Part shown: positions 24,501 through 61,188 of the stretch, one piece after another
How the letters are laid out: each line of letters begins with the position of its first letter
Position numbering within the stretch: position 1 is the first letter of the stretch
NCBI RefSeq assembly: GCF_963676685.1
Contig: NC_092354.1
Location: forward strand, 73,098,001 to 73,162,000
DNA length: 64,000 bases
Direction: 5' to 3'
Source of the DNA: Mytilus edulis
Taxonomy: Eukaryota
The notes under the pieces: generated by a model
Told to the model about the DNA's origin: nothing
Database searches by the model: none
What the model saw: only the letters and a program-made list of their open reading frames with translations
Position numbers and translations under genes: made by a program

Positions 24501-24844
24501 TTTATCCTATCCTGAGAATAATTCAATAAACGATTGTATTGATAAAGATCAATGTTCAGTGTAGTACAGTTCAGTGGACGAAGCAGCATGTTTGATGAAT
24601 AGAAACAAAACATTTGCCCGATTATTAGTAAGTCAGTGTGACGTAAAAGCGGCTTTTCGTTTGTTTCCAATTACACCGCACGATTTTCATTTGTTGGGGA
24701 TAAAATTTCAGGGTGAATATTATCTTAATAAAATGCTCCCTATGGGAGCCTCAATAAGCTGTGCCATGTGGGAGAAATTTGCAAAAGCTTTGCATTGGAT
24801 AATACAGCTAAAAAGCGGAAATGATGATATCCTACATTATTTAG

Positions 24845-25262
24845 ATTGATTGATTGTTGGTTGCTTAACTTCCAGTGGCAAATATTTCATGCATATTCAG
24901 GACGAGAACAAGTTCACAATAAATACAATAGGTAGGTCTTGTCACAATAGAGGCAATCTGGGATGATGGTCGGGGAAATTTGGACTGCCACTGGAAAATA
25001 AGGGTTTTTTGGATAAGGACAGAAATTTTGCCTTGCAACAGGCCATCTACGGACCCCTCAAAGAGTTGTTGCAAGTGTTCTTGATCGTGGCACTCTCTTT
25101 ACACGAGACATTGGATTTAATGTCCCCATTCTGACCGGACGTGACTGCGAACTTCATACATCCCGCACAACCAAACGGACGCCCCACTTCAGCAAGCGTT
25201 TTACTGCCGGTCGGGAGAAGACCAAGTGACCATATTTCTATTCCCCAGTCACCCTTGGGGGC
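24845..25262 (-). mobile_element. SINE inserted into the Ngaro RT catalytic motif
   Basis: (aatc)n tail on the minus strand; 10-bp TSD cattatttag at 24835-24844 and 25263-25272. Confidence 0.75.
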
Positions 25263-25376
25263 CATTATTTAGCTGATTTGATTTTGTCGAGTCGAGCTAA
25301 TTATCAAAAGTTTGCAATGCTTTGAAGTTATTCTAAGAGGTGTGCAACAACATAAGGTACTCCTCTTGCTAGTGAC

Positions 25377-25860
25377 AATAAAATTGAGAATGGAAATGGG
25401 GAATGTGCCAAAGAGACAACAACCCGACATAGAAAAAAAAAACAACAGCAGAAGGTCACCAACAGGTCTTCAATGTAGCGAGAAATTCCCGCACCCGGAG
25501 GCGTCCTTCAGCTGGCCCCTAAACAAATATATACTAGTTCAGTGATAATGAACGCCATACTAATTTCCAAATTGTACACAAGAAATTAAAATTAAAATAA
25601 TACAAGACTAACAAAGGCCAGAGGCTCCTGACTTGGGACAGGCGTAAAATACGGCGGGGTTAAACATGTTTGTGAGATCTCAACCCTCCCCTATACCTCT
25701 AGCCAATGTAGAAAGGTAAACGCATAACAATACGCACATTTAAAATCCAGTCCAGGAAAAGTCCGAGTCTGATGTCAGAAGATGTAACCAAAGAAAATAA
25801 ACAAAATGACAATAATACATAAATAACAACAGACTACTAGCAGTTAACTGACATGCCAGC
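25377..25860 (-). mobile_element. Penelope-like 3'-end repeat inserted in the Ngaro pol
   Basis: Removing it restores PLASD|KTT..LMFLGIEFDT. Related fragments occur at ~30670-30760 and ~41555-41650. Confidence 0.7.
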
Positions 25861-28800
25861 AAGACTACTTCGCCGACTACATTACTTATGTTTTTGGGTA
25901 TAGAATTTGATACACAGAATTTTATCATGCGACTTCCAAAAACTCTCACAACAAATCAGAGATACCTTTGACAGTTCTAAAATAACTCTTAAAGATATGC
26001 AATCTCTTCTTAGACTCCTGATTTTTGCTTGTAAGGTAGTTGCTCCAGACCGCACCTTCTGTCGCAGACTCATAAATTCAACAATCGGGGTATGAAAATC
26101 GTATTACAAAATTCGAGTAAACAAGCAAATGAAAGCAGATTTAGAAGTTTGGTTAGACTTTTTAAAACAATATAATGGTGTCACTGTAATAAAAGACAAT
26201 GTATGGGTTTTGTAATGAAAAAAATAACTGATAGTGCAGGGGGATCCAAAGGCGGGTATGGGATCTATTTTGCAGGTCAGCCCAAGGCATATGTCCAAAA
26301 TATTGGGTTGAGACTGGAAATACAAGAGATATGACGTTGTTAAAGTTGTTTCCAGTTGTAGCTGCTCTTATGTCCTGGGAATCCTATTTTGTTAACAAAA
26401 AAGTTATTTTTCATGTTGATAATCAGGCGGTTGTTCAAATTATTAATATGAAAACTAGCAAATCAAGTAGAGTTATGACGTTAGTAAGACAGATGGTTTT
26501 ATGAACTTAAAAAATAATACATTAGTTAAGGCAATTTATATCCCTTCAAAACAAAACCAAATTGCTGATTGTCTTTCTCGTTCTTAGTGGGGGAAGTTCA
26601 GAAGCATAGCTCCAGAAACAAACCAGTGGCCAACCAAAATTCAAACACAGATCTGGAACATTTAAGTCAGGTAGCTGATTATATTGTCAATCAAGGTGTT
26701 TCCAAAAATACACAAAAATCATGCAATTTGGCTCTGTCAAAACTTTGCACTTTTAGATCATCTTATAAATTGAAACAGGATTGGCCTGTGCCAGTCAATG
26801 ATTTACTAAATTTTATAGCTTTTTTGACGGTACAGGGTCTTTTTTTTTGGGGGGGGACCATCTCATCTTATATATCAGGAGTTGCATACCATCATAAAAT
26901 TCAAGGGATACAGGATACAACCAAATTCTTTATAATTGGAAAGGCATTAGAAGGAATAAAAAGAATTCAAGGAGGAAAACGTAATGACATTAGAACACCA
27001 ATTACAGTGCAATTGTTATCAAATATGATAAGTTGTTTGGATAAAGTATGTAAGAATAAATATGAAGCTGCTTTATTTTCAGCAGTTTTTTCTGTTGCCT
27101 TCTTTGGTTTGCTAAGAGTAGGGGAAATCACTACTTCAAAATCCAAGTCTATTATAAATGGCTCCAACTTAACAATTTCTGATATTTTTAGTTAGGAAAA
27201 AAGTCCTGAAGCTAAGAGTAAGGTGGTCAAAAACTGACCAAAAAGTAAAGTCTGTTACTTTATTGATACCCGAGAACAGATAAAAAATACTGTCCGATAC
27301 GACTCATTAACATATATTTAAAGGTACGACCTACCTGTAACAATACAGATTTGTTTATCCATTATACTTGTATGCCTTTAACTAGATACCAATTCAGTAG
27401 TATACTGGAAAAAGCTTTACATTTTCTTCATATTAGTAAAGGTAATTTTAAGTCACATAGTTTTCGAATTGGGGGAGCCACGGAACTAGCTAGGCAGGGG
27501 GTGTCAGAGGAGGTAATTATGAGATTAGGCAGATGGAAATTGCATGCTTATTCTCGCTATATTAGGTTGCAATTTTTCTAGTTTCAAAAGGCTAACAAGC
27601 AACAGGTTTGCACAGGTCCCAACATTTCAATAACAATTTCCAAATTGTGACATATTCTTTAACATTAAATACCATAAACACTAATGAATTATTGTCTTAA
27701 ATCTTTATAGTATCTATTTCGGGTATTTTGTAGATTAAATGTAAGCATTATTATCTCAATATACTTTAAATGTGTTATACTTCCTTAACACCTAATAAAC
27801 TATTCTATATGTTACGCTTAATAATGGAATCAAAGGTGTTATTCAGAAGTCAAAAACAAAATACAATTTAGAGATTTAAGACAAATTGAAGAGGGATTTT
27901 TGACATTTTTTTATGTGCTTTCTATATAAATGTTATTATTTTGATGGAATTTAATCCTCAAGATTTAATCAGTAGTATTTTAGATAATAAAAGAGATTAG
28001 TGCATTTCTTTTTTTTTTTCGTTTCAGTCATAGTTCAAACGAGACAAAGTTATATGCTGCATTGTTTCAAAATTTGTAAAACAGCCCACTTACTTCCCTT
28101 GACCGTAAAAATTTGCCGTCTTTTCAATTAATGATATATATTTTTTAATTACCAAATATATAGGCCACAAAGTGTAAGGATGACAAGAAGCACATTTAAT
28201 AAAAAATAATGTCGTCCACATTTACTAATGATAAAGATATAAATGAGAAATTAATAAGGTACAAAATAAGGCAACAGTAGTATACCGCTGTTCAAACCGT
28301 TAAATGAATATCGATTTAAACAAAACACTAATCCAAACAGTATTGAAACCTGGTGCGTAAATTTGTTCATTTTGGAAATATACTACTAAACTTATAAAGG
28401 ACACATCGTTATTTTATCAAACTGTTCTATCGATTTCTATAAATATATCAACAAATACTGATTACACCTAACAAACCCCATGCTATGATTTGAATATAAA
28501 GGATCAATCAATATATACATTGTAACAAACAAGCAAATATTTCTTACATTTTGTTCTTCCTGTCATAGGAATAAGGTGAGATAACGACTTATAATTGTCT
28601 TCCTTTTTTGTGACTTGGATGTCTCATTAACACTCATACCGCATCTTCTTTATCTATTAACTTTAAATGTTAAAGAGATTGAAGATCGTGAATAGCTGTA
28701 CTTGAAATTTGAGGTCTTTGAATGTGTACAATATTTAATAAAAATGCTATATTACAGCATGTCAACGTACTTGTCTTTGGTACAGACATTATATTATGCG

Positions 28801-30264: not shown

Positions 30265-30343
30265 ATGACGTTACTCTATTATCTGCTTTTATTTTTTACA
30301 CTGAGAGTTTGTGACACTGAACAAACAGATCCACATACCATAA
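30265..30343 (+). CDS. Exon 1: signal peptide MTLLYYLLLFFTLRVCDTEQTDPHTI
   Basis: Acceptor ttgcag ending at 30247, ATG at 30265, hydrophobic core, donor gtgagt at 30344. Confidence 0.8.
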
Positions 30344-33300
30344 GTGAGTGATTTATTAAAAAATTGTATTTTAATTATTTTAATTTATTTTTTAAGATAC
30401 AGACCAAATTTTAAATAAAAAAGTGCAACATTGTTCACTTATTTACACAGACAAATATAGATACGAGAAAGGTGATACTGCACATCTACCTCTTTAATCT
30501 TATTTGTATGTTAAAGTGGTATTTTGGGATATTGGAATGTTTTATATTAGTTTGATTATTTCTATATTGTTTATCTATAACTTTATTATTGCAAAATATC
30601 TTATTGTTAATGTATTCATACAATAATTAATGAACTAAAATAGAAAAAAACATATGAAACATACAATATAATGACAGAGGCTCCTCATTTTGGACAGGCA
30701 CAAAAACATAATGGGGCAGGGTTAAACATGTTTTGTAAGATCTCAACCTCCCCCTATACAATTGCTTGCAAATGACAAATTAAGAGCAGCAAATACATCA
30801 AACGTAATAATAGCATAACGACTAATAAAAAAACAAACCGTTCAAAGTTGTCGTGTTTGAGGTTAACCAACCCTTGCAAAGAGATGAAAAAGTAGCAATG
30901 CATATGTTAGTACTATCATTAATAATAAAACAATTTAAAAAAGTGGTAATCGACAATGAGTTGAAAGGTCAACTTGTTCATACTATTTTACTTTTAAATT
31001 GACATTTTACTAAAATTATCAAACTGATGATAGTTATTTGCTTATTAAGTTTAAATCTTAGTTTTTCTACATATACACTACAGCTTGTATACAGATGATC
31101 GGATCTCTACAAAGTAAATATGGCAACTATAACATTACAATAAGAAGTCCGCATGTTCATGTTACCTGTGTAAACGACACTACACTGGTCGGAAGTAGTA
31201 ATGTCACGTGTAAAAATCAGAAGTGGCAACCAGATTTTCCTCATTGTTTAGTGAACTGTCCACCAATACCACCTTCACCGATCATTATTTCAGCGAATAC
31301 GCAATCTTATGTAAAGGTAAGATCATCACATCTAATATATAGTGAACACAATATCATTTAGAAAAGTTTATAACGTCTGCCGATCGAAGGGGATTAAGTT
31401 TGAAATTTAGCAATTTTATGGAATTTAGTGTAAATATAATAATAGAAATAATTTTGGCCGTACTATCTTAGATCGTTATTATAGCAGTGAGGCACCATTT
31501 TGTAAGTACACTCAGTCAAGCTTGTGTGATCGTCATAAACACTACAACTATAGTCATACGCATACAGTACAAATAACAATGCATTCAGACATATACCCTT
31601 CTCAGTCTTTTCGGCAAGATGCTGATGAAGGTGTTTATTTGGAATGTCAAGGTGAATACATACCATCCATTGTGAATATCATACTTAAGAAGTTGAATTG
31701 TAAGAAAATATACACACCTTCTGCAAGTCTAATGTTCTCCTTTTTAACATTGTTTTCAAGGCTAGCTACATTAGATATTTCCTTCAACCTTGTGGATAAT
31801 CTATCCGAAGCGTATTTGATTGATTCGTCATATAATTTATTGATTCATATTATAATTGCTACAAAACGTTATGTAGAAATAAAGTCCCCAATCAAATATA
31901 TGTATACAAGGATATATATTTCTACAAATGATATTAGCTGTGAATAGTCTAAAAGTGTACAATAGCAATTTATTCGATAATAGCAATAAAAAATGCGATT
32001 GATATATTTTAAATTTTCGAACTATATGTTTTAAAAAGGCTCCAGTGAAATAACGTAAAGTCAAGGCCCTTGTTAACCATAAATGAAATGTAAGGTATGT
32101 TCACAGCGCAACGTATACTATACTATAGCATAAAAATACGATGTATTTCAATACATGTTTGTTCAATTTTGTCCATTTCGAAATCCATCATAGTATTTTC
32201 GGTAAAACACGTGTTTTCCAATAATATTTTTAAATTATTATTAATTCAAAATTATAATAAAAATTGCAGATATGAAATCATTGCGTATGCTTAATCGGGG
32301 ATTAATTTATATGCTCCAGAATGAATCATCAGTTTCTGCTAAACAACTGATACCCATCATGTTGACCACGAAAATATACTGAAATGTATATCATTTCGGG
32401 GCCTTTTATAACTGACTATGTTGTATGGGGTTTGCTCATTGTTGAAGGCCATACAGTTTTTAATGTCTGATTAATTTGGTCTCTTGTGGAGGGATGTCTC
32501 ATTGGCAATCATACCAAAAATATTTTTTTTTTATATATGATTCAGATAGATCAAGATAAATAAAAATGGAATTAAAGAGATATGAAATTTTCAAAAATGA
32601 TGCAACTGTTTCGATATTTCAGACAAAAGACAGAAATCGATCAGCCGGTACAACTATTTCTCTTTCATGTATTACATCCGGGTTTATTGTAAATGGCTCG
32701 TCTAGAATTACATGTCAATCAGATAGATCTTGGAAACCTAACATTCCAAAATGCAGACGTTAGTATTTGATATTATGATTTGTTGTGTTGTTTATCCATT
32801 CGTTCTAATCTTATTCAGGGATATCAGTGTTGTCTTATTTACACATCCCCAAATGTGTAACCAAGAAGAAAATATAAATCATTTCAAGATAGAATTGATC
32901 AGCGATAAAATAAAGGAACTTTCTTGAATCGAACAAATTAAATATTTCTTAGAGGGAATTATAAGAATGACATTATGATAGATAAATGTTTTTTTGTAAA
33001 TACCAAAACTATATCATCATACACATATAAATATAACTAGAGGTCAACATAGGGTAACCGCAACACCCTTTCAACTCATAACAGTATGCATAGCTGCGTT
33101 TTGTTGCCCTTCTGGTACGCTCGAATAGAACACTTAAAACTGTGAATTTCTATAATTATATAGAAGTGTGTCAATCACCTATAGATAAAAAAAAATAGAT
33201 GCTGGATATATTTGAGAACGCTACTGTAAAAAACCCACAAAGGAAAATCTTTATTATTTTTGTATTTTTTTCAAAGCTATTCAAGGCCGTAAGTCAGACA

Positions 33301-36300
33301 GGTTTTCTTCGAAGACAACATTTTATGATAAAAGTAGATACTAACATATTTAAAAATAATACACATGTAGATCGAGGAAAATCTTCCACAATTTCGGAAT
33401 TTCACAAAAATGAAGTTCTGAAACTCCAATAAGGAATGAATTTCAAATTTTAAATGATTGTCCCTTTAATTTTCTACAGCTAAAAAGTTTCCACCAGAGA
33501 GACGATGGATGACGATCTTAGCTATAGCCGGTCCAGCAGCTTTAGTATTGGTAGTCTGTGTGATTGTTTTAGGAAAATTTTTGCTCAAACGAAGGTAATC
33601 ATTATATTAATTTTAATTATCTATATGAATAATTTGCAATATTGGTTAATTGATAATCCGGATTTTGATGGGTTTGTGATGCTCAGTCCTTTATTTTCAA
33701 TGTTGTGTGATATCTACCGTTCTTTGATGTTGATCTTTTTTGTTTATAGCCATAGCGTAGTCAGCTTTATTTCGAAATCGATGAATCCTTTTGATATTTA
33801 TGCCACTGTTTTTTAATATGATGGGAACATTATGTAGAAGATATTTATGATGTGGCTATGAACTAGCTTTTAGTAGTAGCAAGTATTCTTAAAAAAATAG
33901 ATACGTACTGTTTGTATTTTGTTTGTATGTCAGTTGTTTTTGTGCTACATGATAATTATATGACCCACACCATAACAGTTTTAGAATTAACTTTATTTTT
34001 GAACCACTGTAAAAAAAAAGGGGGATGGGTTACACTAAATTCTAAAGCTACTAAATTCGATATTTATCAATACTAAGTCAGGAGACTAATTAAATGGTTA
34101 CCGTTGGTTGCTGGTTGTTATTTTCATTTATTGTCACATATCGTAATCTGCGTTTGAAGCTCATTCATTTTCTTCGGGTTTTTTTTATCGTTATTCGTAT
34201 ATGAAAAATTCACTGACGGCATTTGAATATTATTCTTGTAATTAATTTGTTCATTATTAATATTTTTTTTATAAAATTTGAATTACATTATTAAATTTTG
34301 TGTAATGGTTACAACCTTTTTTTGTATAATTAATCGACTACACTTGACCTATGTGGGATTGTTGATTAATTGGCACTTCTTTTTTATGACGATTTATTTT
34401 TATTTATTTTAGACTGAAAAAATCAGAAATACAGGACGCTATACATCTATCACAGAAAAATGAAACAACGCCGTTTGTATTTTACTTTTTTTGTTATACT
34501 GACCGAAAAATGCTTGTATTATACAAGTGTTATGAAGTCGATATTAATGAATTAGTTGACGAAAGATAGTTTGTTCCTCAAATTAATAAAGCTTGCAGGA
34601 AAACATTCAAGATTTGAATTACTACAACTTTATCTTTATGCAGCTACCACTATTGGAGCAGGATCTACTACCCCATCTGGAGTGTCTGAAATCACTTGTA
34701 GCCTTTTGATTGGGTTCAAGTTTTATAACATAATATATTACATTATATAGACCCTACAGCCTTACAACAAATATGTTGAAAAATACATTTATCTCAAACA
34801 ATTATGTTGTTTGAACAAAAACAGAATGTTGGTTACCGTCTTGTATTTTTTTCTTAATCATCTTAAACGCATTTAGTTTTTTATAGAGATTCTCTTCTAC
34901 AACTGTTTTATATGGTTCAGATTTCAATTGATGCGCTCAAATATTTCATATTTAGTTTTTGAAACTTGTTTTCTCGCGACCCCCATAACGAAGTTTTCTA
35001 TAGATACACGTAAAGTTCATTATGGTATTTGATCATCAGTTTACAGTACATATTTGGTTAATATGAGTTTGATTTCAAATGTTTAGCACCATTTGTTATA
35101 ATCTTTATTACAGGAACTGTTTACCCTTCATGAACTTAAGGTTGATCACTTGGTTTAACCGTTGAATATATACTGAAGAAATTTTCTAAATACCGTGACG
35201 ACGTAGTCAAACATGTTTAATGTGAACAGAGTAAACAATTGATAAGTTCTAATTCTTTATTAAAAAAGGTTATCATTACAGGTTTTATAAAGTTTGGACA
35301 ATACGAAGGACACAAAAGAAAATGATTGAAGCTATAGATCTTTCTTCATTAAAAAATAAAGGTATATAAAAACGAATGTATATGATCACAAGTTAGGTTA
35401 AGTTTATTGATAGTTTTGCTGTGTTTCATAGCTTAATTCTACATTACGACGAGTGCCACACGTGGAACACACCTTAGCTTGCTTACACTACTGGAGCTCC
35501 GAAAATCAATACAGGTTTTGTTTGATTGCGTATAAACTCGGCTTTGAGCGTTATGGGACGTATACAATAAAGTGTTGTTTTTATTCTTTGCATACCAATC
35601 ACAAATGAAAAATGATAAATAGAAAGTGTGTTCCTGGTCCCTATTGTTACACGATTAAATACTATCGAATGCAAACACGTTCAGGCATTGTACGTTACAC
35701 AGAGAGAAACCACAGTTTTGCGAATAATACTATATAAATGTTAGTAGTACCACTGCAGAAAATATGGAGGTGGTTGTACATGCTACATACCAATAACGTC
35801 ATTCAAAGGTGTGTGTCCGTTTGGCAGCGGGCACACTATTCACACATGACTACGTAATTGAAAAATGGATGGAAGATACCACATAATTTTAAACAATTGA
35901 ATATATCTTTTAATAACATACATTTTTTTAATGTTCGGGCTTTTCATAGCTGACTTTACGATTATTTTGTTTCGTTTCTGAAGGACGTATCGTGATCTTT
36001 CATAGCCTACATTTACTTCGAACTTGACTAGATAGTTGAGTCACACGAAATCATACTACATACCACATATCCTTATTCTTATATTATACTTTAAACATTT
36101 ACACACACAAAGAAAAGGTTTCAAGTATTTTTTAAATGTCAAATATGGGATGATGACTAATTTGCATGAATGTTTCAGCAAGTAAAATGTTTAATATTCC
36201 ACAAGATAAATACTTGAAACTAGTACTAGAAGAAGATGGCTCAGAGATTCAAACAACGCCCTCTATGGTTCTTTGTCAAAAGAAAGTATTAATGGTTATA

Positions 36301-39300
36301 GATAGGAACGACAAATGGAAACCCGTATCATCAGATGAGAGTGAGAAAATAAGGTACACATATTTCATTACTATTATAATCTGTTTCTTTCCATGCACAT
36401 ACGATCGCAATAATTCAGTGTGGTTCGTTTTGTACAGTCTTTATATGATGTGTTTTTGACCTAATGTAAAAATTGTTCATGACAATAATACCACTCACAA
36501 GTATAAACAATACAAACATAAAAAAATGAAAAAGCAAATATACCATCACTTACAATTAAATCAAAAGCAGCACAGACTCCTATTTACAAAACTAGATACA
36601 AGCAGGTGTGTGTAATCAGTATTTATTCAAAACGAAAAATTAACACAACAACACTCAAACTAGAGGTCGACAATAAACTGTACATGTCTCCTTTCCGTTA
36701 TTTAAAGATCGATTGTAATTAAATCCTTTACTAAAAACACTAAATTTTTGATTGATCAGTGATAAGACGCCAAATGTATAGTAAGAGGATATGCAAGTAC
36801 CATTTCAATATCTTTTTGAAGCTCCTTTATAATATGGTATGCATTAAGAAACATGTCGGCATGAAAGGATCATAGTGTGCTCCAATGGCTATGCTATGTT
36901 GAAAAGAAGGCACAGGATGATAAGGATATATCAATTAATGAAAACATTAGACAATTGTGGTATTATTTAATGTAATACCGTGAATTTTTTTCACTCAACA
37001 GTTGTAACTGTGACGTACTTAATTTTTATCATGAAACATACACTGATCCCGTTGTCAAAACAATAATCTTTCAGATTAACCTACGATGTGTGTTCATTTG
37101 ATCGAAAGCAAAGAAAGTTATTTTTAGCAAACAGTTTAAAAGATCTGATAGACCAAGGTAAATAATAAATGTTAAATGATACTACAACAGATCTTCATTA
37201 CGACACAGAATGTGTTTTCTGCGATGCATCAACTACGAAGCATTTAGATAACCGAGCAGAGTAACTGTTGAGACAAAATCAAGACAATGGCAATACATAT
37301 TGGTCAACCAATACATGTAATGCATTATACATGTAATTTTGTTTTATTGTGCAAACTTAACTTCATTAATTGAAACAAGGTTAAAATGTTTGCCACTTTT
37401 TAATATCAAAGTCATTATAATTCAAACTACAATTATACGTTATAAAATCACAGTGCTTATCGACATGAAAAAACAACAGGAACTACGATATCAATATCTT
37501 CACGTTTATATCAGTAAATCTTTTCCTAGGTAAAAATAAACTATTCCGTATTTTAAGATGAATTTGTGTTTCTCTTAAAATATATATATTGAGCTGCATT
37601 TATATACATTTGTAGTACAACATATCTTTGAACAAGAAGATAATTATTTGTGTCTTGAGATGGACGGTACGGTAATTGATGATGATATTTCGCTGACTGC
37701 TGTTGCTGGGCAACAATTGATGTCAATGAATGAAACCACCGGGTGGCGATCAGTGAACCCCGGAGAGATAACGAAGAGTTTGTCTGAATTGAAAACTGAT
37801 GAGCAATCCAATGACAAAAAGTGAGTACATTTAAAGTCATACATTTTAAAGGTCATGTTAAAGTCGGATAATTAATAGATGTAGCTACATTGAAATACGT
37901 GTGTCAACTTTTGCCTGAATATTTCATGCAGACGATGGTAATTTCATTTATTTGTACTGTAGTCATGTCAAGTAATTATTTTATTTCAGTGTTATATTCA
38001 ACATTGCCATAAAAGCGCGAGGTTTAAATAGCCACAAAACAAGGTTTCACCCATCATTTTTTCTTAAAATGTCCTGTACGAAATCCGGAAAATGGCAGTT
38101 GTTATCTTACAATTCGTTTCTATGTGTGTTGCATTGACTTTTGTTCTTTGTTGTACTTAGTTTTTTTTGTTATGACGTTGTTTTCCTTTAATAGTTGATG
38201 TGTTTCCCACGGTTTTAGTTTGTAACCCGGATTTTTTTTTTCTTTCAATCGATTTATGACTTTCGAACAGCGGTATACTACTGTTGCCTTTAAATATTGT
38301 TTGTCTGAGACATATGAAAACGTATTAAGAAATTTGAGACATATTATATCGTAAAAGGAAATATGAGACATATAATATATTATAATGAAATTTGAAATAT
38401 ACTAATTTAATCGTATAAAGAAATACGAAAAATATTGTATTCATATAATTTAAGGAAATGGTGAAAACTGAACGTCATGATCCCATCGATAATCAATAGA
38501 TGTATCTGTATTAAAACATTGCTTGCGTCAACGTTTGTCTGAATATTTCATGCAGACGATGGCGCTCGATTAGTAAAAAAAAAAATCAAAGAGATTGACT
38601 GTGGCTAAGACATATATTCATCTGTCGGCTTTTGTAATTTTCTAACGAGTTTCATAGAGATGCACCTGTATGGCTTCACGGGTTTAAATAAAAACAAACC
38701 TTATTCCGTTTGCAATTATGAAGTTCAATAATTACAGTCAGTTATTTAGCTAAGCATAATTACTTGAATTAGTTTTTTTAAACAAATACTATCTTCAAAT
38801 TCTAATTGACGCTTTCAATTTCAGTCCGGGTATCTATGATGAGTTTATTTTCATATTTTTATTTTATTTTACAGAGATTGTTACAAAGTATGGTCAAAAG
38901 ACCTTCGTTATAAGAAAATAATATTTGCCAGTGATTTAGTTGATTTACATATAAAAGGTATACACTATTTAAGTATAAATTCTACCAATTACATAATAAC
39001 ATTGTAATGACAGATGCTATGATACAATCAAAGTCACGACGTGCACAGCATGTACAATTTAGACACATGTGTTTCCCGGCAAATGGAACGAGACGCAATG
39101 TAAGCTAATATTGTTAGGATGCACAAATTTCGAAATTAAACAATATATTTGCATAGTCTATATATATCACTACGTTTATGTTGAATACCTTTCAATTTCG
39201 AAACCAGGGACCTTAGTAGCGTGGTGGTATTGGTAGTCGAATGTCTGTATCTCTACCTTTCAACACGGAGTTTGATTCCAGCACTGGCAGATGCATTGTA

Positions 39301-40209
39301 ATTGAATTTTAATTGACTTGGACTGTCATATCCCTACATTTAAGTAAAGGCAACAACACTATATCTCTGTTCAAAAGTCATAAATCGATTGAGAGAAAAC
39401 GAATCCAGGTTACATACTAAAAGTGAGAGAATCACATCAAATATAAGAAGAAAACAACGAAAAAACAGAACACAGAAGTGCAAAAACAAACAAACAACAA
39501 TGCAAAATTCATAGAAACGAACTATAAGATAACAACTGCTATATTCCTGGCTTTGAACAATTCATTTTAAGTAAACGTGATGGGTTGAACCTGCTTTTGT
39601 GGTTATCCAAACATCCGCGATTTATGGCAATGTTTGATAAGCCGCGGGTTTATTTATAATCTTCCTCTCAAACCTACATACGAATATAATTTCTATTTCC
39701 CATAAATGTTTGAAATTGATAGTGCCTTGACAGTGAGGATACCATATACTTTTTATATTGCAATACGAAATAAGAGTAAAAAACATTAAAATTGATGTGC
39801 ATGTATTTGTCTGTTAGTTTATAAGTTTTCGACTATGACTGTATACATTTTAGAACTTTAATGTTTTACATGCTATAGTGATACTTTAAAAAATGGCTTC
39901 TTTGAAGATATTAAAGCAAACACAAATACGAACCAACATACACTTTATTCTTTTTATGATGCTACTTGGAATTTTTTTTTAGCTGCAAAGGCTTTGTGTC
40001 TGCAACCACCTATAGAAATATCTCTTTTGAATGATGATGTTCCAATATTTGATAATCAGCAACTCATACATCATAGAAAGGATATTTTGCTAGCAGTAGA
40101 AGCTGGTGATGCGTACAGTGTAGCTATGACGTCCGATTACACAGAAATTCCGGATGTACTCCAACAGACGCCATACAGACGGAATTATACGAATGACACG
40201 TACTTCTGA
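30265..40209 (+). CDS. Type I membrane protein: signal peptide - 2x Sushi/CCP - TM - 3x CIDE-N-like - Tyr tail (491 aa, 11 coding exons)
   Basis: Exons 30265-30343, 31084-31316, 32623-32758, 33480-33594, 34413-34472, 35282-35361, 36179-36353, 37075-37157, 37616-37820, 38875-38957, 39983-40209. All introns are GT-AG with compatible phases; total 1476 nt with no internal stop. Confidence 0.85.
31084..31316 (+). CDS. Exon 2: Sushi/CCP domain 1 and start of domain 2
   Basis: C..VHVTCVNDTTLVGSSNVTCKNQKWQPDFPHC then NCPPIP; tacag acceptor, gtaaga donor. Confidence 0.9.
32623..32758 (+). CDS. Exon 3: rest of Sushi/CCP domain 2
   Basis: GTTISLSCITSGFIVNGSSRITCQSDRSWKPNIPKC; ttcag acceptor, gttagt donor. 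Confidence 0.9.
33480..33594 (+). CDS. Exon 4: transmembrane helix
   Basis: WMTILAIAGPAALVLVVCVIVLG followed by basic KFLLKR; ctacag acceptor, gtaatc donor. Confidence 0.85.
35282..36353 (+). CDS. Exons 6-7: CIDE-N-like domain 1
   Basis: PFYKVWTIRRTQKKMIEAIDLSSLKNK|ASKMFNI..LKLVLEEDGSEI..VLMVIDRNDKWKP. Confidence 0.8.
37075..37820 (+). CDS. Exons 8-9: CIDE-N-like domain 2
   Basis: RLTYDVCSFDRKQRKLFLANSLKDLIDQ|VQHIFE..YLCLEMDGTVIDDD..LMSMNETTGW. Confidence 0.85.
38875..40209 (+). CDS. Exons 10-11: divergent CIDE-N-like domain 3 and Tyr-rich C-terminus
   Basis: CYKVWSKDLRYKKIIFASDLVDLHIK|AAKALCLQPPIEISLLNDDVPIFDNQQL..ILLAVEAGDAY, then SDYTEI..TYF-stop. Confidence 0.75.
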
Positions 40210-43200
40210 CAATACCATATGTTTTAAATCAGAATATTCCATTGGGTTTTATAAATCTAGCCCAAAAAAACGACATATTCATTAGTGTATAATAAGAGAA
40301 ATGCATGTTTTTTTTCTACAACTTATCATATTGTGTGGGTTTTTTTCATATTCGAGTGTGTTACTGTGTGTTACTGTGTGTTCAGTTTAGCATCCGAAAG
40401 TATATTGTGAATGGTTGTGTACGTTGTAAAAATGATTTTGTGATTTAAAAATAACACAGAAAAAACTGAGAATTTTCTCATTTCCTCAAATCATCTATTA
40501 TCTTCTTGAAATAAGGTTTTTTAAACGTGTTTATAAAATTATATAAAAAGATGTGATATGAGTGTCAATGAGACAGATCTCCACTTAGATCATAATTTGT
40601 AAAAGATGAACCATAGTAGGCCAAATTACTAGTGGAAAACAATTCAAACAGGAACCTGCTGTCTATTCTATATAAAAAAAAATAAGAAATGAGAAACACT
40701 TATAAACAACACCATTAAACGACAACCACTTAACATCGCCTTCCTGACATAAGACAGATGCAAACATATGAAATGGGTTTACACATTTTGATAAATACCG
40801 AACTACACCCTTACCTGAAACAGTAGTGTAACATCACAAAATAGAAAGACACACTATGAAGTATCAAATTAAATGGTTCAACTCAATCAAAAAACATATT
40901 CACAAAAACAAATGAACATACACTGACCGAATAAATTTGAACTATAGCACACCGTAAATACACCCATTTTTGTAATACTCATGATTGCAGACTAGCTATT
41001 TTATCCAGCAATAAATAGTTTTACGAATTGTTCAGTGGAGTTATCAATTAATTTAATTGAATTTCTTGACATTGACAGTTATGTACATGTTCATACAAGC
41101 TTCAGGCGATGATACATTATCACTTAAAATAGCATCTACACCGATGCTGATATCCCACTTTATGTTATTTGTTTATTACCCAATTGATATAATTCACCTC
41201 ATTCCGCAAATAAAGTTTTTCCAAGGATTTTCTGGTCTTTTTTTCCCCAAAACAGATAATACATTTTCATTAATCTGTCTATGGATCTGTCGGAAGTAGA
41301 TATAATCTTTAACCCACACATTCCTCTACTATTCTCTTTATTTCAAAATTTTATTTTGAATGTTAATGCATTTACTTCTGTTTCCTGGATTAGAACAGAA
41401 TACACATGAAGTATATCAACAACAGTACATCCTGAAACACTTTTTTCTATAACAGATGCATATATGCATACATATTAAAAACCAGGAAATAAGTGTACAT
41501 TTTGTATAAAACATTTAGCATTCAACTTTTGAGCATACATAAAAATAACAAAGGAATAGGGAATGTGTCAAAGCGACCATAGAGCAGAAAACAGCCGTAG
41601 GTCACCAATGGTTCGTCAATGTAGCGAAAAAAACACCCGCACCCGGTCTTTTTTTATAAATTGTTTTCCTATTTTCCTCTCTCATTCTTTTTGTTTTCTC
41701 TATTTGATATTGTTTTATTTGTCTTATATTGAGTCAAATATATTATTTGAGATATAATTTCAGAACATTTTTGTATTACCTTCAATATAAACAAAACTTT
41801 TGTTTAATATAAATTATATTCCATGTAACAAAGTATATAGTTACATGAACAGTTTATTTTTACACAAAGTAATATAAGCATGATACTATCACTTATTGGA
41901 AACAAAATGTAGACCATTATACAGAATACCTCAACATCAGCTTGTGTGATATTACTTATTATTCGAACATAAGCTTTCATTTTTGTTGCGTTGAATAGGA
42001 TAGTTTTTTTCTTCAGAAACGTGTTAGAATATTACAATTCGCAAATTAATATTATTCTAAAATGGCTTCTAGTTTTATTGGGCGAAAAATAATGTATTTA
42101 AGTTCAAGGACAAATGCAATGTGCAAATGTAACACAAAAGATGACAATTTTTTGGAAGCTTTTTCTAATATGTTTGTTTTTGCTTTTTGTAGAGTTGTCA
42201 ATCTTTCAAACTATTCATTTTTATTGAAAGATTGCTAACTATACGTTACTATATGTACTTCTGACATTAACACATGCAATTTTCAATATTTTTCAATATC
42301 TAAAATTTAAATTAAAAACAAGTTGTCTTGGACTTGCATTGCCATATCTATTTTCATACTCGTATTCGTATATGCTTTCCATGTTTTCCGATGCTTTCCA
42401 AACGCACTACAACCATATATTGAGTGTTTATACATTATACCAGAGTGTAGGAGTTGGAGTTTCTGATACCAGACTTACTATTGTTTTATAATCTCTTTCT
42501 GTTACATTATAGCTATTCGGTGCATTTCGTTGTAAGCACTTGATTTTTTTTATCAATTATATTGCGTATTGGTGGATCTTATAGAGCACCAGATTTAGAC
42601 ATTGTGATAAGAGAAGATGAGATTGAGTATAAATATATAGGGAATATGTCAAGAAAACAACAACCCGACCAAGGAGCAAATACAAAGACAGTCCATCGGG
42701 ATGTTATTGTCGACAAGAAACTTAAAAGCTCAATATGGTTAAAATGTTTACCAAATTTGTTTTTTTCACCCCACATTATCATGAGTATTGCCCTGACAAT
42801 GATTTTGATTTAATCGAGGTATGAGAAACGGTTAAAAATTGTCGAAGTTTATTCGACATAACATAGCAGGACAGTGTCCTTGTTGAAGATGCATGTTTTA
42901 TCAGACCGACAACTTGCTTCTTTTTTCTCCCGCCTTTGTCAGAAAGAAAAATAAAGCAAATACCGTTGTTGTTGTTTGCGTCAAAAAAATGACATGTTAG
43001 ACCTTATTACAGATCTCCAGATATAATCCGTATTTTTCCATGGTAACCATTTTAAATGCCAGATTTAAGTTGAACTTAAATTTTAGTCGGTATGATGACA
43101 TTTTGATTCTCATATTGTTTTACTCTTGTTTAATTTTTTTCTAAATTTGCAGATTTTAATTTTTTTTCAATTTTTGGCTAAAAATTGCAATTTAAAAGCC

Positions 43201-44546
43201 CCGTTCCTATAGCAACAGACCTATTATTTTTCATTACGTTGAATTTCTCCGCTAAATAATAGATACAAAGGTAATGTAAGATTAAAAAAGTTATTGGTTA
43301 ACTTTTAATTACATTTTTAATGAAAAAACTGATAAAAATTGGAAAATTTTACTTTTTTGTTTCCATAATTACCACCCTTGGAAACAAGATACTCAATAAT
43401 TTTGTCTATAAATAAAAACTATGATATGTTGACTCAATGGAAAGTATTATGTCTTATTCCAAATTGGATGCGTAAGTTTGCTATACATCCTGAAAAAAAA
43501 CTGTCTAAATTGGGTATTACAAATACCTGTTGAACTCTTCCATGTATCCATGGTTCAAGTCAGGGTAACACGAAATATTTTGTATTTTTAAATTCCGTCA
43601 TAATATCAATTTGTAATGATATTTATAGAAAAAATAGATATTTTTTTTTCTATATATTCTTTTTAAGTGGTTAATAAAGCCCAAAGTAGACCTATTTCGT
43701 AGTTGAAAAGGAACAATTTTGAAGGTTAAATTAGAATATCCTGTTACCATGGCAACCATGGTCCAAAGCAACCATATCAACATTATTGTTTTCATTTATA
43801 CGAAATAGTGTGATAACTGACAAAGTTTAAAGCTTTTCTGAGACTATGCATGCCACAGCCTATATCTGGCATGGTTGATATTTACAGATAATCAATGTTA
43901 ATATCTAATACGATTTGGATTTACTTTTGGTCATTTGCATTCGAATTTACCAGGAAGGTTGAGAAGCACCGTCTAATATTATAATGACCGAAACAAACAT
44001 TGTTTTGATCGATATATAAATATATACATTAGAAGACGAAAAATGTTTCGCATCTTAGTTATGGTGATGTTTAATAGATATGAAAATAGCATTTTTTTTA
44101 CTAGACTCAAAAGCTGAGTAGTACCACGTGTATGTGCCAGACGACACAATTTCATCGCCAATAGTATTATCATGATGACGCCGAGTATACTTGTGGCTCA
44201 ATTTGTTTATGGTTCAAGCTTATTTCAAATGCTAAACATACCATTTTTTTTTTGATGGATTGACCCAACAGGACATTACAATAACACACTCTCGTACATA
44301 CGTGTATACAATACTTCGACAATACATAGACTATTACCTTGCAGAATGAAAATAAAAATGTTATTTATACAGTACATGTTATACAATAGTTTTTCATCAT
44401 CTTCATACTGAGTTTGTTTTATCATTTTGTTTTCGCTTCATAATACAATCAATAAATACGATGAATGTATACCAGCAATATAATGTTAATTGCATCACAA
44501 TACGTCATTTGATCACACAAATTAATACTATTGAACGTTTTTCAAT

Positions 44547-44928
44547 TTAATTGTAAACAGGGTCTGCTTTTTTGTTTAGAGACTGAAGATAGTTCCCAGA
44601 TACATCGTAGTCATCTTCTGTAATTCTCCTGTGTGCAATTCCGTAATCACCATCACAGTTGTTATGAACATTATGGCGTATTGTATGATCATACATGACA
44701 TCAGAGTCGTCTTCGGTGCTCCGAAGATGTGAATACGTGTTTGACTCGTCTGTTGAAATGGCCAAATTAACTGCATGCGCTGCTGACATTTGTATTGCAT
44801 CAGGGGAAATCATCATATTAGCTTGAGGGTTATTGGCTGATTCTGGTTGTCTCTCAGTTGTTGTATTCATGCTTGTCGTAACGTTGTCCTTACTTGATTT
44901 CTCAACATTTCTTGATTGATTACGTCTT
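44547..44928 (-). CDS. Last exon of a type I membrane protein: Tyr-motif-rich cytoplasmic tail
   Basis: Acceptor ttttacag, phase 2, open to the stop at 44547; motifs TYSHL, MYDHT, DYGIA, DYDVS, NYLQS, PVYN. Confidence 0.85.
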
Positions 44929-45329
44929 CTGTAAAAATAAAAATAAAAATACGTGTTTTATTTAATTTATATGTATAACCTGTTTTACTGTATAGACAGT
45001 CTGAAGACCCGTGGTACATTGTATCTATTTGAAAGAGCAATGCAAATGCCCTTGACATTTTTCTCATTGTTTATTTGTCAACTTTAACTTTATGACATAG
45101 TTTATTTTCATATAAGGTAGGCATATCTGGTCGATAGGTGTCATGTGTATTTTTTACCTTATCATCATTTTTCATTTCTCAGAGTAAAACTTTCAAGTAT
45201 TCACGAAATTATATTTGAAAAAATCTAAATTTCTAAAGAAAGGTTTATCATTACATCAGCTATTTATCTACTTTTTGATTTAGCGATACCTATTGTTTGT
45301 ATTACAAACAATTTTGATAAGAATCATAC

Positions 45330-45411
45330 CTTAATAAAACTCCAACAATAATGCTCATTATGAGCAAAACTCCAACAATTCCTCCAACAATGAAAACATA
45401 TACTGGAATTC
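45330..45411 (-). CDS. Transmembrane exon GIPVYVFIVGGIVGVLLIMSIIVGVLLR
   Basis: tttacag acceptor, gtatga donor, phase 1-2, joins the 44928 exon in frame. Confidence 0.85.
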
Positions 45412-45590
45412 CTGTAAAGCAATTTAGTTATTTATGTACATGTTTAAGTAGCACTTGGAGTGGTTATTGAATGGTATACTGATATGAATTAGAAGAATCG
45501 TAGTATTCCTTACTATGCAATTGGAGAAGAAATGAATTTTTAGACAAGAAACATGATACATGTGATTATTTCATAAGTTTAAACATATTT

Positions 45591-46516: not shown

Positions 46517-49500
46517 TAAAGTAAAATATCCCCGCTTAAAGGCAATTCAGCATGTCCGAATCAGACGATTCGTCAACATCACGTTCCAGAACGTTCAACA
46601 AGAAAGGACAACAACATTTTGAGGATAAATATTCCAAACGAAACAAACACAAATGCAAGGCATATGATCAAACAGCAGACCACCTTCATCATTTTAAGTA
46701 AAATACTTATAGACTTAGCAACGCGACAAATTAAAAATCGAATCAATGATATAGCATTCGAAGAAAGATCAATAATTTTATCAAGCAGTTCAAAATCATC
46801 ATTAAGATCATCTACAAGTTTTCGCCAAAGTCAAATGAGCTCAGTCATATCACGAACAAGAGCAAAAGCAAAAGTAGCAACAACAAGATTAAAGTTTGTA
46901 GAATAAGACCTACCGGAAGCCAAACGCGAAGCTGGCGCAGCAGAAGCAGAAGTTGATGCATTATCAAAATCTCCGGAATCGTCAGGAACGTAAGTTAAAT
47001 ATGAATTGAACATACAATCAGAGCCATTGGATGCAAAAGCTCGGACTAAGACATACGTTCAACTATTAAACTCGGCAAAACAAGATGTGCAAACTGGAGA
47101 CACACATAACAACCAACATATTGAATCTTCATACCGTGTAACTGAGACAAATTTGGACCCGAGGGTCGAACCCTTTCTTTCGTCACAGTCAGTAGCAGGT
47201 GACTTTACTCGATATCTGTTGCAAAAAGATCTGCTTCTCTAAAGACTTTCACAGTTTGATGACCGACCAGAGACATATCTCACACGGAAAACGTCTTTCC
47301 GTGCTGTCATGAAAGAATTAAAAGTTACACCAATGAAGGAATAAGATTTCTTAGTTAAATGGACAGGTCAAGAATCAAAACGACACGTCATAAGCATCAA
47401 ATCCGTCAACGCATCAAATCCCTCTATAGATCTAAGCCGATAGGGGCAACGTCTCGAAGAACGATATGGATATCCCGAAATGTTAGAAGCGTCATTAAAA
47501 CGGAGAGTTGAACAGTTTCCGAAATTAACTATAAAAGACAACAAGAAATTGTTCGAATTGTATGATCTTGCATCAGAAATCGATTCAATCAAGAGTATGG
47601 AAAACATGAAACCCCTTCATGGTCAATATGATTCATCAATCGGAGTTAAACCAATGGTGAATAAATTACCACATAGTCTTCAGGAAAAATGGACCACAAC
47701 AGCTGTTAGATACATGAACTATAATGATGTAGCCTATCCTCCATTTGGTGACTTTGTAGAATTTTACCGAGATCAGAGTCGTATCAAAACTAACCCAAGC
47801 TTCTTTAACGAAACAACACCATTCAAGAAAGAAAACAATTTTCAGAAGCGACCCGAAAGAAACACTCACATACACGTCAAGAAGACTGAGACAACGGACC
47901 CACATAAACCTTTATCTCTATCTGATAATAACTCCACCAAACAGAAATGTTCGCTTCATCTTACTGAATACTCGTTGAACAAATGTAGAGTTTTTAGAGC
48001 CAAGCCCATCGGTGAGAGAAATAAATTTATTAAGGAGAAGACAATCTGCTTTAAATGTCATACATTAAACTGTAAGAACGTTGTTCGTTGCAAGGAATGT
48101 AATAACATCCACCTTATGTACACGTCGATCATACTCATGTGAATTCTTCTACACAACAAACTCAGGACCGTCTGAAAATCAAACAGATCACGGAGGGGAG
48201 TACTCTATCTGGTACAGCTAAGGCATTATGCACTCGCATTTGTGGAGGGTTTTCAGGAAAATCATGCTCAAAGATCATTTTAGTCAATGCATTTTTAAAA
48301 GACAAACCAGAGAATGTTGTAAGTCTCTACGTTATGATCGACGATCAGAGAAACATGACTCTTGCTAGTTCTATTTGATATGTTGGCAGTTGAAGGAGAT
48401 GAAACAGAATATACACTGGTATCATGCTCAGGTAAAGTCCGTTCCACTTGGAGGAGATATAATGGTTTAGTTGTTGAATCTATCGACCGATCAGTTCAAC
48501 TTGATATGCCTTATGTGATAGAATGTGAAAATTTACGTGACAATCGGAATGAAATTCCAACGCCAGAAGTTGCAGAGAGTTTCTATCACTTCCAAGATAT
48601 TGCGCATCATATCCCACAGCTAGACAATGAGGCCCATATTATGATGCCTATAGAACGAGACGTCATTTCAGCACATCACGTACTAAACTAACGTATTGGT
48701 TTAGCTAATCCTTCGTATGCACAGAAACTACGTCTCGAATGGTGTATCATCGGGGAAAGCTGTCTAGGTAACGTCCACATGCCAAAGGAATTAAGAGTCA
48801 ACAAAACCAATATCCCTGAAAATGGAAGACCAACACTGTCTGATCCTTGTAATAACCAAAGAAAATTGAAAGAAATAGTACATGATGTCTTCGAACAGAA
48901 AGACGACGATAATAAACCTGGGTTATCAATTGAAGACAGACCATTTTTGAACATGATGGACTCAAGTTTTCGCAAAAACGAAAATGGAAATTGGAGCTGT
49001 CCGTTGCCCTTTAGGCACAATAGGTCGAACATTTTGAACAATTACGAACACGTGAAGAGCAATTGTACTAGAAAAGTCATTACGAAAAGATCAAATGAAA
49101 AGAGAACATTTTCTAGAGTTCATGGAGACCATTTTTTCAAACGGTCATGCCGAAAATGCACCACCTTTACCAAACGACACAGAAGGTTGGTATCTCCCAA
49201 TATTTGGAGTATACCACCATCATAAGAACGACAAAGTCCAAGTGGTTTTTGACTCGGCAGCAAAATGCAATGGATTATCCTTAAATAACGTGCTACTACC
49301 TGGACCAGATCTACCAATAGTCTATTGGGAATATTGCGTCGATTCAGACTCGAACCGGTAGCTGTTGTTGCAGACATTCAACAGATGTTTTATAGCTTCA
49401 AAGTCGATGAACATCACAGAGATTATTTAAAGTTCTTATGGCATGAACAAAATGACATCAACAAACCACTTACAGAATATCGAATGTGCGTCCACATTTT

Positions 49501-51404
49501 TGTAAATACCGCATCTCCATCTATCGCTAGCTATGCGCGGTAATCTTGGCTCAGAGGTAACCCACTTTTATTTGTTCTAAATGACTTTTATGTCGATGAT
49601 GGATTGACCTCGCTTCCAACAGCCACTGTCAATCTTCTTAAAGAGATACAGGAAGCACTCAAAACAGAAGGAAAATTAAGGCTACACAAGATAGCATAAA
49701 AAAACAAAAAGGTTATGGAAGCTTTCCTTCCCGAGGATTTAGCTAAGAATTGGGAAATCAAACCAGCGCTACCAGTACAATGCAGTCTTGTAATCCGATG
49801 GAGTCTGATTCAGATACCTTTTCATTTGATATATCGACAGATGACAGACCGCATTCTAGTAGAGGAGTTCTATCAACGATAAACTCTATTTTTGACCCAC
49901 TTGGATGTTTAGCTCCAGTTGTCGTAGAAGGAAGGTTGATTCAACGTCAACTAGCGACTGGGACCAACCGTTACCAACAGAGTATTTTGATACTTGGAAA
50001 AGAGGGACGAAAGATACCAAAGGGAACCGTTGGACATCTTCATTGCAAGAATTGGACCAGTTACATATTCGCCGTACTTATCTGTCGGATTCATTTTTTA
50101 AATCAGAAGAGAAGTCAGTACATATATTTTGCGATGCATCAGAAAAAGCTATCACAGCTGTAAGTTTTGTACGTGCACGAAATAATGCAGGACAATTTGA
50201 ATCAGGATTCCTACATGGAAAATTTAAAGTAGCACAAGTTCATGGACATACAATCCCGAGATTAAAACTCTGCTCAGTCGTTTTAGCAATCGAGATAGCC
50301 GATACAATTGCGCATCAACTACAATTGCCACTGAAGGAGTTCAAATTCTATACCGACAGCAGAGTAGTTTTGAGCTACATTAATAATGACTTATAATTAT
50401 GTTGCTAATCGTTTACAGAAAATTTGATCAATCACACTTACAAAGCAATGGCAATATGTTTCTACAAATAACAATCCCGCTGACAAAGGTACGCGATTCG
50501 TATATGCTTTGGAAATGTCAAATTCTCTATGGATCACAGGACCACAGTTTCTTTTAAAAGACGCCACAGGTATAACAGAGAACTTTACATTACAAAACCC
50601 AGATGTTGAAAAGGAACTCAAACCGGATGTACTGAAGTTTAAGACGGATATTAAATTTTTACAGCAGTTAGGAACTGATCGATTTAGTAAATTCTCGCTT
50701 TGGTAAACTCTTACAAAGGCAATTGCACGTTTAAAACATGTAGCACAGCCTTTTGCTAGCAAATCATCATGTACAGGATGGCATATCTGCTCAGAATCAG
50801 CATCTGTAAATGCCATTGATGAAGCAAGAAAACTAGTTTTACGAAAAGATCAGACAGATACTTTTATCGACGAAATTGAGTGTCTTACCACAAGAAAATC
50901 TCTTCCGAAATCCAGCTGTGTAGTCAGTCTTACGCCTTTCCTTGATAAGAAAAACATTTTACGTATTGGTGGAAGAATACAAAATTCGAATGTTCCAGAT
51001 ATTGAAAAACACCCGATACTCCTTTCTGGTCGCCATCACATTGCACTACTTATAGTCAGACATTATCATGAATTTAGTCATCATCAAGGACGTCACATAA
51101 CCGAAGGTTCAATTCGTTCTGCAGGCTTCTGGATAACAAGAGTAAAATCACTTGTATCTTCCGTCATTAGCAAATGCGTAAAATGTCGTATACTTAGAGG
51201 GTCGATATGCAATATTAATGTTACCTCCAGATAGGTTAGAACCTGGTCCTCCATTTACAAACGTTGGCGTCGATTGTTTTGGTCCGTTGGAAGTGTTAGC
51301 TCGTCGAACTCGTGGTTGACACGCAAACAACAAAAGATTAGCTACTATGTTTACATGTTTGACAACAAGAGCTGTTCATGTAGAAGTAATAGAGGAGTTA
51401 AGCT

Positions 51405-61126: not shown

Positions 61127-61188
61127 TCTACCTGCTGTAAAAGGTTTGATATCAGAGACACCCGCTAAACTTACCTGTTTAGCATAAT

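Follow-up and report, generated by a model that had tools for sequence, protein, structure and literature searches.

An 11-exon mussel gene predicted to encode a Sushi–transmembrane protein with three CIDE-N repeats

The window analysed here is a stretch of 64,000 nucleotides (nt) of Mytilus edulis DNA (NCBI RefSeq assembly GCF_963676685.1, contig NC_092354.1, positions 73,098,001 to 73,162,000, forward strand). It contains an 11-exon gene on the plus strand, at positions 30265–40209, that codes for a protein of 491 amino acids (aa). A first-pass annotation made from the sequence alone had described six exons encoding three CIDE-N domains, and these form the 3′ half of the gene. Exon 6 starts in phase 2, therefore the gene begins further upstream. 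A database search with exon 7 found P0002 (XP_071140834.1, labelled Mytilus edulis, 491 aa), into which the 11 GT-AG exons translate letter for letter. The exons are as follows.

Exon 1, 30265..30343, plus strand: start codon and hydrophobic N-terminus, likely a signal peptide at aa 1-26 (judged by eye); exact translation to P0002; joint 30343-31084 seen in runs X2 and X10.
Exon 2, 31084..31316, plus strand: Sushi/CCP domain 1 plus the beginning of domain 2; variability within the protein is highest here, with identities of 49/78 to 65/74 among Mytilus records.
Exon 3, 32623..32758, plus strand: remainder of Sushi/CCP domain 2; Pfam PF00084, E 3.8e-7.
Exon 4, 33480..33594, plus strand: predicted transmembrane (TM) helix, aa 162-180, then a basic stop-transfer stretch; Kyte-Doolittle 19-mer peak 3.02; helix in the AlphaFold2 model.
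Exon 5, 34413..34472, plus strand: juxtamembrane linker, 60 bp; translation match and transcript joints.
Exon 6, 35282..35361, plus strand: 80 bp; CIDE-N repeat 1, first half; basic face, Lys at 3/4 positions.
Exon 7, 36179..36353, plus strand: second half of CIDE-N repeat 1, with the EDG turn intact and, in mytilids, an eroded second acidic cluster (2/5).
Exon 8, 37075..37157, plus strand: 83 bp; CIDE-N repeat 2, first half; basic face lost, with Asp at the strand-1 Lys and Gln at the helix-1 Lys.
Exon 9, 37616..37820, plus strand: CIDE-N repeat 2, second half; the most complete acidic face, 3/5; also the longer linker, to repeat 3.
Exon 10, 38875..38957, plus strand: 83 bp; CIDE-N repeat 3, first half; basic face 3/4.
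Exon 11, 39983..40209, plus strand: second half of CIDE-N repeat 3, which has lost the EDG glycine, then a low-confidence tail bearing one YxxI motif (aa 467-472) and the stop codon.

The five introns between exons 6 and 11 are all GT-AG, the phases alternate 2|1|2|1|2|1, and the frame stays open to the TGA at 40207-40209. The first-pass annotation was right about these six exons, and their GT-AG borders, phases of 2 to 1 and quoted motifs are all confirmed in the sequence, but its gene was incomplete, missing the five upstream exons and with them the context of a TM protein. Splicing was tested on eight sequencing runs, of which X10 is RNA on record, while X1, X2, X6 and X9 are only guessed to be RNA. 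GT-AG joints were found for 10/10 introns in X10, nine in X1 and eight in X2, with eight listed for each of X6 and X9; these five runs come from five studies. All five joints of exons 6-11 are present in transcript-like contigs. A single X1 contig (1164 nt) holds pieces from the Sushi-1 exon through repeat 2, and a single X6 contig (1002 nt) holds pieces from the TM exon through repeat 3. The DNA-like run X15 showed even intron coverage and none of the gene's joints among the rows listed.

P0002 is composed, in order, of the likely signal peptide, two Sushi domains, one TM helix, three CIDE-N domains and a short tyrosine tail of ~30 residues. The Sushi ectodomain carries five N-glycosylation sequons. 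Six Lys/Arg residues lie in the 12 residues after the TM helix, compared to four before it; among 31 family rows, 29 have a TM helix, and the Lys/Arg excess follows it in all 29. From the TM peak, this excess and the hydrophobic N-terminus, we infer a type I topology, with the Sushi domains outside and the CIDE-N domains inside. The predicted architecture as a whole, an 11-exon gene for a Sushi–TM–triple CIDE-N membrane protein, is close to certain. Pfam gave no match in P0002 to the nuclease domain PF09230 of DFF40/CAD or to the C-terminal chaperone/inhibitor domain of ICAD (~30 residues follow repeat 3), and none to a death or TIR domain in P0001-P0004 or P0010-P0014. Sequence matches of the tail in the PDB cover the CIDE-N part only; no profile of CIDE-C, the lipid-droplet domain of CIDEA/B/C, was run. 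The ESM Atlas returned no usable match for the tail and, for a Littorina protein, one Mollusca Sushi cluster at 0.76, which is a lead only.

Pfam PF02017 matches the whole of P0002 in three stretches with 94.9 bits (curated cut-off 23.5). When exons were scored alone, four gave weak CIDE-N matches and the two repeat-3 exons gave none. AlphaFold2 builds a strand-strand-helix-strand-helix-strand unit three times, with a predicted local confidence (pLDDT) of ~80 for each repeat. The profile match and the common order of strands and helices confirm that the repeats are mutually homologous CIDE-N domains, as first proposed. In a structure search that reports only the best range per chain, the best six matches were all CIDE-N domains (Z 13.9-9.8), over model ranges 39-132 and 131-208, which gives repeats 1 and 2 the alpha/beta-roll fold. 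The closest structure is the CIDE-N domain of FSP27 (Z 13.9, root-mean-square deviation (rmsd) 1.3, 78 aligned), followed by that of DREP3 (Z 13.2, rmsd 1.4, 75 aligned). The linkers between the repeats are about 8 and 21 residues long. AlphaFold2 finds no fixed packing of the three repeats, with a predicted template modelling score (pTM) of 0.33 for a 332-aa model of P0004 (weak evidence, 18 sequences); the full-length model has a pTM of 0.45. Full-length Foldseek matches to poly-ubiquitin and ISG15 chains were rejected as an effect of tandem beta-grasp folds (rmsd 8-22 Å), and Pfam matches to KHA, Calsarcin and IARS1 ubiquitin-like domains were disregarded because they fell below the cut-off.

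The interface of DREP3 comprises basic residues K122, K132, K145 and K149 and acidic residues at 162, 165, 167, 168 and 170 (PMC8647176). These positions were mapped onto the mussel repeats through sequence and structure alignments. Repeats 1, 2 and 3 of the window protein hold 3/4, 1/4 and 3/4 of the basic positions and 2/5, 3/5 and 2/5 of the acidic positions, with net charges of +6, −6 and 0, respectively. The first-pass annotation had described basic patches that persist and an acidic face lost by degrees from repeat to repeat. Neither description survives: repeat 2 is the most acidic of the three and has an Asp at the strand-1 lysine, and only the strand-2 lysines persist across the repeats.

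Across 14 triplet rows, which are not independent as they include five Mytilus orthologs and four oyster rows, the K122 (strand-1 Lys) position is Lys or Arg in 13 copies of repeat 1 (with one gap), Asp or Glu in 13 copies of repeat 2, and Lys in 13 copies of repeat 3. The same position is Lys in 11/11 single-domain relatives and acidic in 0/107 other CIDE-N domains. The K145 position is Gln in 13/14 repeat-2 rows, and at most one of the four basic positions is kept in repeat 2 of all 14 rows. The EDG glycine is retained in 14/14 rows for repeat 1 and 14/14 for repeat 2, compared to 3/14 for repeat 3. Filament formers (DFF40, DREP2-4 and FSP27) have both faces on each domain, a trait that the window protein lacks. 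Repeats 2 and 3 each appear to be one-faced, with an acidic and a basic face, respectively. Substitutions at related sites have been described: DREP2 K13D, at the same site as the repeat-2 charge reversal, is monomeric (PMC6292858), DREP4 G92I loses its filaments, and DREP4 K74E (basic face) mixed with D91K (acidic face) forms a dimer only (PMC8891305). Together, the loss of the basic face in repeat 2 and of the glycine in repeat 3 argue against an open head-to-tail trimer.

In P0002, identity is 20-26% between one repeat and another, and 33-43% between a repeat and its same-position counterpart in a scallop and an oyster. We built a quick tree of 88 rows and 80 columns; it included 36 of the 107 other CIDE-N domains and left out the partial row P0021_D1. 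All copies of repeat 2 fall in one clade, 14/14, with an SH-aLRT (approximate likelihood ratio test) value of 100, spanning mussels, oysters and scallop. Repeat 3 also forms one clade (SH-aLRT 100), joined by the repeat-3-like fragment P0118, and repeat 1 is unresolved from single-domain receptors; a single origin of the three repeats from a receptor-type domain is at most tentative on this tree. The position-wise identities and the clades indicate that the triplication predates the split of mussel, oyster and scallop, with repeat 1 remaining closest to the single form. A single-CIDE receptor gene of the mussel genome has the identical phase 2|1 exon module. These identities, clades and shared module support the old duplication of a two-exon module that the first-pass annotation had proposed.

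Its report of an intron at the same aligned position in all three repeats was likewise borne out. In the comparison it suggested with other mussel CIDE-N genes, the other non-CAD CIDE-N loci examined have a phase-1 intron at the same site, profile position ~28 (placed by eye, at some loci from the donor or acceptor side only), whereas in the CAD gene of this genome, at C13:70.40 Mb, the CIDE-N domain is split further along, in phase 0. The mussel phases agree with those of Dffa, whose first intron is in phase 1, and Dffb, in phase 0 (PMC2426694). Because it is common to the other non-CAD loci examined, the intra-domain intron is ancestral and does not set this gene apart.

A search with the tail retrieved eight proteins, including ones from Saccostrea echinata, S. 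cucullata and Argopecten irradians. All eight combine a TM helix with three CIDE-N domains, and those that retain the N-terminus also have a Sushi-type region. When a profile was run against 1.84 billion representatives, 178 matches reached E<=0.001; the best 150 of these were listed, and they added a Pacific oyster cluster of 39 members (LOC105336999). The triple-CIDE layout thus occurs in named records of Mytilus, Saccostrea, Magallana and Argopecten. Proteins with a TM helix and one CIDE-N domain occur in Mytilus (P0182), Patella, Lottia, Lymnaea, Haliotis, Littorina, Babylonia, Nucella and Gigantopelta, and those with a complete N-terminus also have a Sushi domain. By the hydropathy rule, no TM helix precedes CIDE-N in the 121 lower-ranked matches P0044-P0164, among the best 150 of 178. 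Named family members are all molluscs except for one record, from Digyalum oweni, in the Littorina cluster; many rows have no species name. We take D. oweni to be a Littorina parasite, and host carry-over is likely. In the gastropod single-CIDE receptors P0028, P0031, P0033, P0042 and P0043, a common conserved juxtamembrane stretch contains RRESRR, a possible kinase site, which is absent from the bivalve triplets seen.

Within Mytilus, the first Sushi region is identical to that of P0002 at 49/78 to 65/74 positions and the repeats at 62/76 to 75/76. The ectodomain is far more divergent than the tail, as in recognition receptors. A broken tandem copy at C11:73047201-73055895 (L021, L022), 81 kb upstream of the gene, contains exons 1-10, with an exon 2 that is 76% identical and a near-identical tail. 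It has an in-frame stop in exon 10, and exon 11 was not found; its product may be a TM protein with a shortened CIDE part (P0007, P0001). Between the gene and this copy, synonymous (dS) and nonsynonymous (dN) divergence are 0.435 and 0.192 in the ectodomain and 0.124 and 0.021 in the tail. The upstream copy has the type of ectodomain carried by P0005, a complete protein of M. galloprovincialis. That two such types occur on nearly the same tail suggests either exchange between copies or old allelic lineages.

Other CIDE-N loci were observed in the same genome. Two further triple-CIDE-N genes with the same exon module lie on the minus strand: one at C11:67.826-67.836 Mb (L030-L031), for which Sushi and TM exons were found, and one at C11:19.568-19.575 Mb (L033), which matches P0022 and P0034 and has a His instead of Asp at the strand-1 lysine of repeat 2. 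The gene for P0182, at C11:77.496-77.503 Mb (L029), has a Sushi-TM-single-CIDE-N layout, and its product is a candidate co-receptor and a candidate model of the ancestral form. Genome-wide, 41 of the 46 candidates scored gave exon-level PF02017 matches, many of them on C11, and the mussel CIDE-N family is expanded well beyond CAD and ICAD. A pair of CIDE-N exons with an intron between them was seen in at least nine dispersed copies that are 99% identical, on C1, C2, C7, C9 and C11 (L003-L011, L041-L046). The three that were compared lie in a shared segment of ~8 kb whose left end is the same in each, and insertions break up some of the copies. The segment, in which no transposase open reading frame (ORF) was recognised, is likely a mobile element that spreads a CIDE-N gene. 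A 4.1-kb insertion in one copy (L043/L044, C2:73.80-73.82 Mb) holds ORFs of 911 aa and 180 aa, which we take to be a Penelope-type reverse transcriptase and a GIY-YIG nuclease. Among the profile matches, unusual CIDE-N fusions were also seen (P0035, P0046, P0063, P0066, P0117, P0132), whose partners are a transposase-like region, CARD, C2H2 fingers, NYN nuclease, zf-CW and zf-MIZ.

We favor a reading in which P0002 is a receptor at the cell surface, with a tail that would signal through charge pairing of the CIDE type, and assign it a probability of roughly 55%. Ligand binding or clustering through the variable Sushi ectodomain would bring tails together, and cytosolic CIDE-N proteins or single-CIDE receptors would dock on repeat 1. 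Repeat 2, left with only an acidic face, and repeat 3, left with only a basic one, may pair as a closed dimer, which would either clamp the tail in an off state, in cis, or cross-link receptors, in trans. Closed pairing of this kind would limit the length of the assembly, instead of seeding an open filament. That repeats 2 and 3 form such a specific pair is a more tentative proposal than the receptor itself, and we consider it less likely than not.

Death receptors (TNFR1/Fas) and Toll-like receptors, which are single-pass proteins with a cytoplasmic homotypic assembly domain, offer a comparison for the mussel receptor, with the difference that CIDE-N is a beta-grasp domain that pairs by charge, not a death or TIR domain. 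Membrane proteins of the regulators of complement activation (RCA) group, such as CR2, CR1 and CD46, have the same tandem Sushi/CCP ectodomain and one TM helix, and the best match of the ectodomain among solved sequences is CR2 (E 2.6e-25). The cytoplasmic tail of RCA proteins is short, whereas here it is a folded CIDE-N tail; most family members have only one or two Sushi domains. With the CIDE-N/CAD proteins (DFF40/CAD, DFF45/ICAD, CIDEA/B/C, Drosophila DREP1-4), P0002 shares the PF02017 domain, the fold, the charged-face positions and a phase-1 intra-domain intron, as in Dffa (PMC2426694). The described members have one CIDE-N domain and are soluble, nuclear or on lipid droplets. In contrast, P0002 has three behind a predicted TM helix and Sushi domains, has no nuclease or ICAD C-terminal domain, and has two that appear one-faced. 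The DREP4 K74E–D91K dimer combines one domain whose basic face is dead with one whose acidic face is dead, which also seems to be the state of repeats 2 and 3, but it is engineered, soluble and measured (PMC8891305), while repeats 2 and 3 are natural, lie in one chain and are judged from sequence.

Several observations weigh against the receptor reading or its parts, beginning with the non-independence of the triplet rows noted above. Repeat 3 holds two to three acidic residues at the mapped positions in 11/14 rows, so its designation as basic only rests mainly on the lost glycine turn. The acidic face of mytilid repeat 1 is eroded, and this repeat could therefore offer a basic face only. The pTM of 0.33 gives no support to a clamp of repeats 2 and 3 in cis. 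The YxxPhi motif outside the domains is present in mytilids and scallop, but several oyster rows lack it. The ectodomain has a dN/dS of 0.44 between the tandem copies, which does not support positive selection. With ~6% of the raw reads of each run examined, X21 had no read on the exons and X22 had three joint reads, so expression of the gene would be low or tissue-limited. A complex prediction for repeats 2 and 3 scored 0.23-0.24, compared to a mark of 0.34, with the alignment unused and no control folds, and is evidence neither way.

Among other explanations, an unlikely one that fares best is a membrane-anchored CAD decoy, in which repeat 2, with only an acidic face, would attach to CAD's basic face in the manner of ICAD and thereby retain CAD, or cap its filaments, at the membrane. 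The charge pattern of repeat 2 is ICAD-like, DFF45 having only conserved acidic residues (PMC6292858), and a CAD gene is present at C13:70.40 Mb. However, CAD acts in the nucleus, the ICAD chaperone domain was not found in P0002 with Pfam, and the single-domain relatives keep both faces, therefore the ancestral receptor was no ICAD-like cap.

Improbable, and slightly more so, is the model of the first-pass annotation, in which the repeats form a pre-assembled head-to-tail trimer that seeds open CIDE filaments. Tandem CIDE-N folds on linkers of ~8 and 21 residues, the basic faces kept in repeats 1 and 3 and the head-to-tail polymerization of CIDE domains (PMC8647176) are in keeping with it. Repeat 2 is not: the middle unit of an open chain must offer both a basic and an acidic face, but it lacks a basic face in 14/14 rows and carries the conserved charge reversal, in 13/14, at the site of DREP2 K13D. 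The acidic loss is not graded, and the pTM of 0.33 speaks against a pre-assembled oligomer. The capping role that the first-pass annotation offered beside seeding survives in altered form, since repeats 2 and 3 are one-faced; the open filament seed is not supported.

We give equally little credence to a tether at organelle or membrane contacts, where trans CIDE-N pairing of a secretory-pathway protein would join membranes or lipid droplets, as vertebrate CIDEC does. The nearest solved sequence and structure is indeed the CIDE-N domain of FSP27/CIDEC, and the protein is membrane-anchored, but the match is only 30% identical, the sequon-rich, variable Sushi ectodomain fits surface recognition, and CIDE-C is reported to be vertebrate-only (PMC2426694). 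A generic ubiquitin-like scaffold for non-CIDE partners, such as ubiquitin-binding proteins, with signaling left to the tyrosine tail, would account for the top Foldseek ranks that the full-length model gives to linear poly-ubiquitin and ISG15 chains and for the YxxPhi motifs of mytilids and scallop. It is no more probable than the tether, as those matches (rmsd 8-22 Å, 9-15% identity) reflect tandem beta-grasp folds, and the CIDE interface residues, the EDG turn and the lysines, are selectively conserved. Finally, fusion of a Sushi-TM gene and a separate CIDE-N gene by gene prediction is hardly credible: the database models P0004, P0007 and P0022 lack the ectodomain, but transcript-like single contigs bridge the TM and CIDE-N exons and the same order recurs across bivalves, gastropods and a second locus of this genome.

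Elsewhere in the window, ORFs resembling gag-like, reverse transcriptase/RNase H and tyrosine recombinase sequences lie at 58314-62469 (minus strand), apparently nearly intact, and at 23182-27578 (plus strand), fragmented; both sets presumably belong to DIRS-type retroelements. Fragmented ORFs at 46520-53612 (plus strand) have the look of a retroelement, which we assume to be a BEL/Pao-type long terminal repeat element. Short ORFs like exons of other genes occur at 16314-21529 and 42544-45427, mostly on the minus strand. Those near 16-21 kb have lectin-like repeats rich in cysteine as well as a repeat rich in His and Thr; those near 43-45 kb include an Asp-rich exon and a possible TM exon. Two of these short ORFs were tested against Pfam and gave no significant match.

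Searches of the open-access literature yielded no description of a transmembrane or Sushi-linked CIDE-N protein; of the papers listed, PMC3482391 and PMC3417536 each name CIDE-N three times. The molluscan receptor-like family is apparently undescribed, though the pairing of Sushi and CIDE-N is visible in automatic database labels. Speculatively, it may constitute a receptor class in which CIDE-N takes the role of death or TIR domains. The variable Sushi ectodomain would sense a ligand and the tail would nucleate CIDE assembly at the membrane, coupling directly to CAD/ICAD or to the expanded cytosolic CIDE-N set, and the triplication in bivalves would have added an acid-only/basic-only switch pair. 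Work on CIDE-N has treated it as a module inside the cell, for DNA cutting in apoptosis and for the growth of lipid droplets. CIDE-N as a receptor tail in bivalves and gastropods would add a homotypic signaling domain to the receptor repertoire and, if the receptor reading is true, a possible route from the cell surface to CIDE assemblies. Natural one-faced repeats would allow a direct test of what limits or caps CIDE filaments. In farmed mussels, oysters, scallops and abalone, animals whose immune receptors matter practically, these genes lack annotation.

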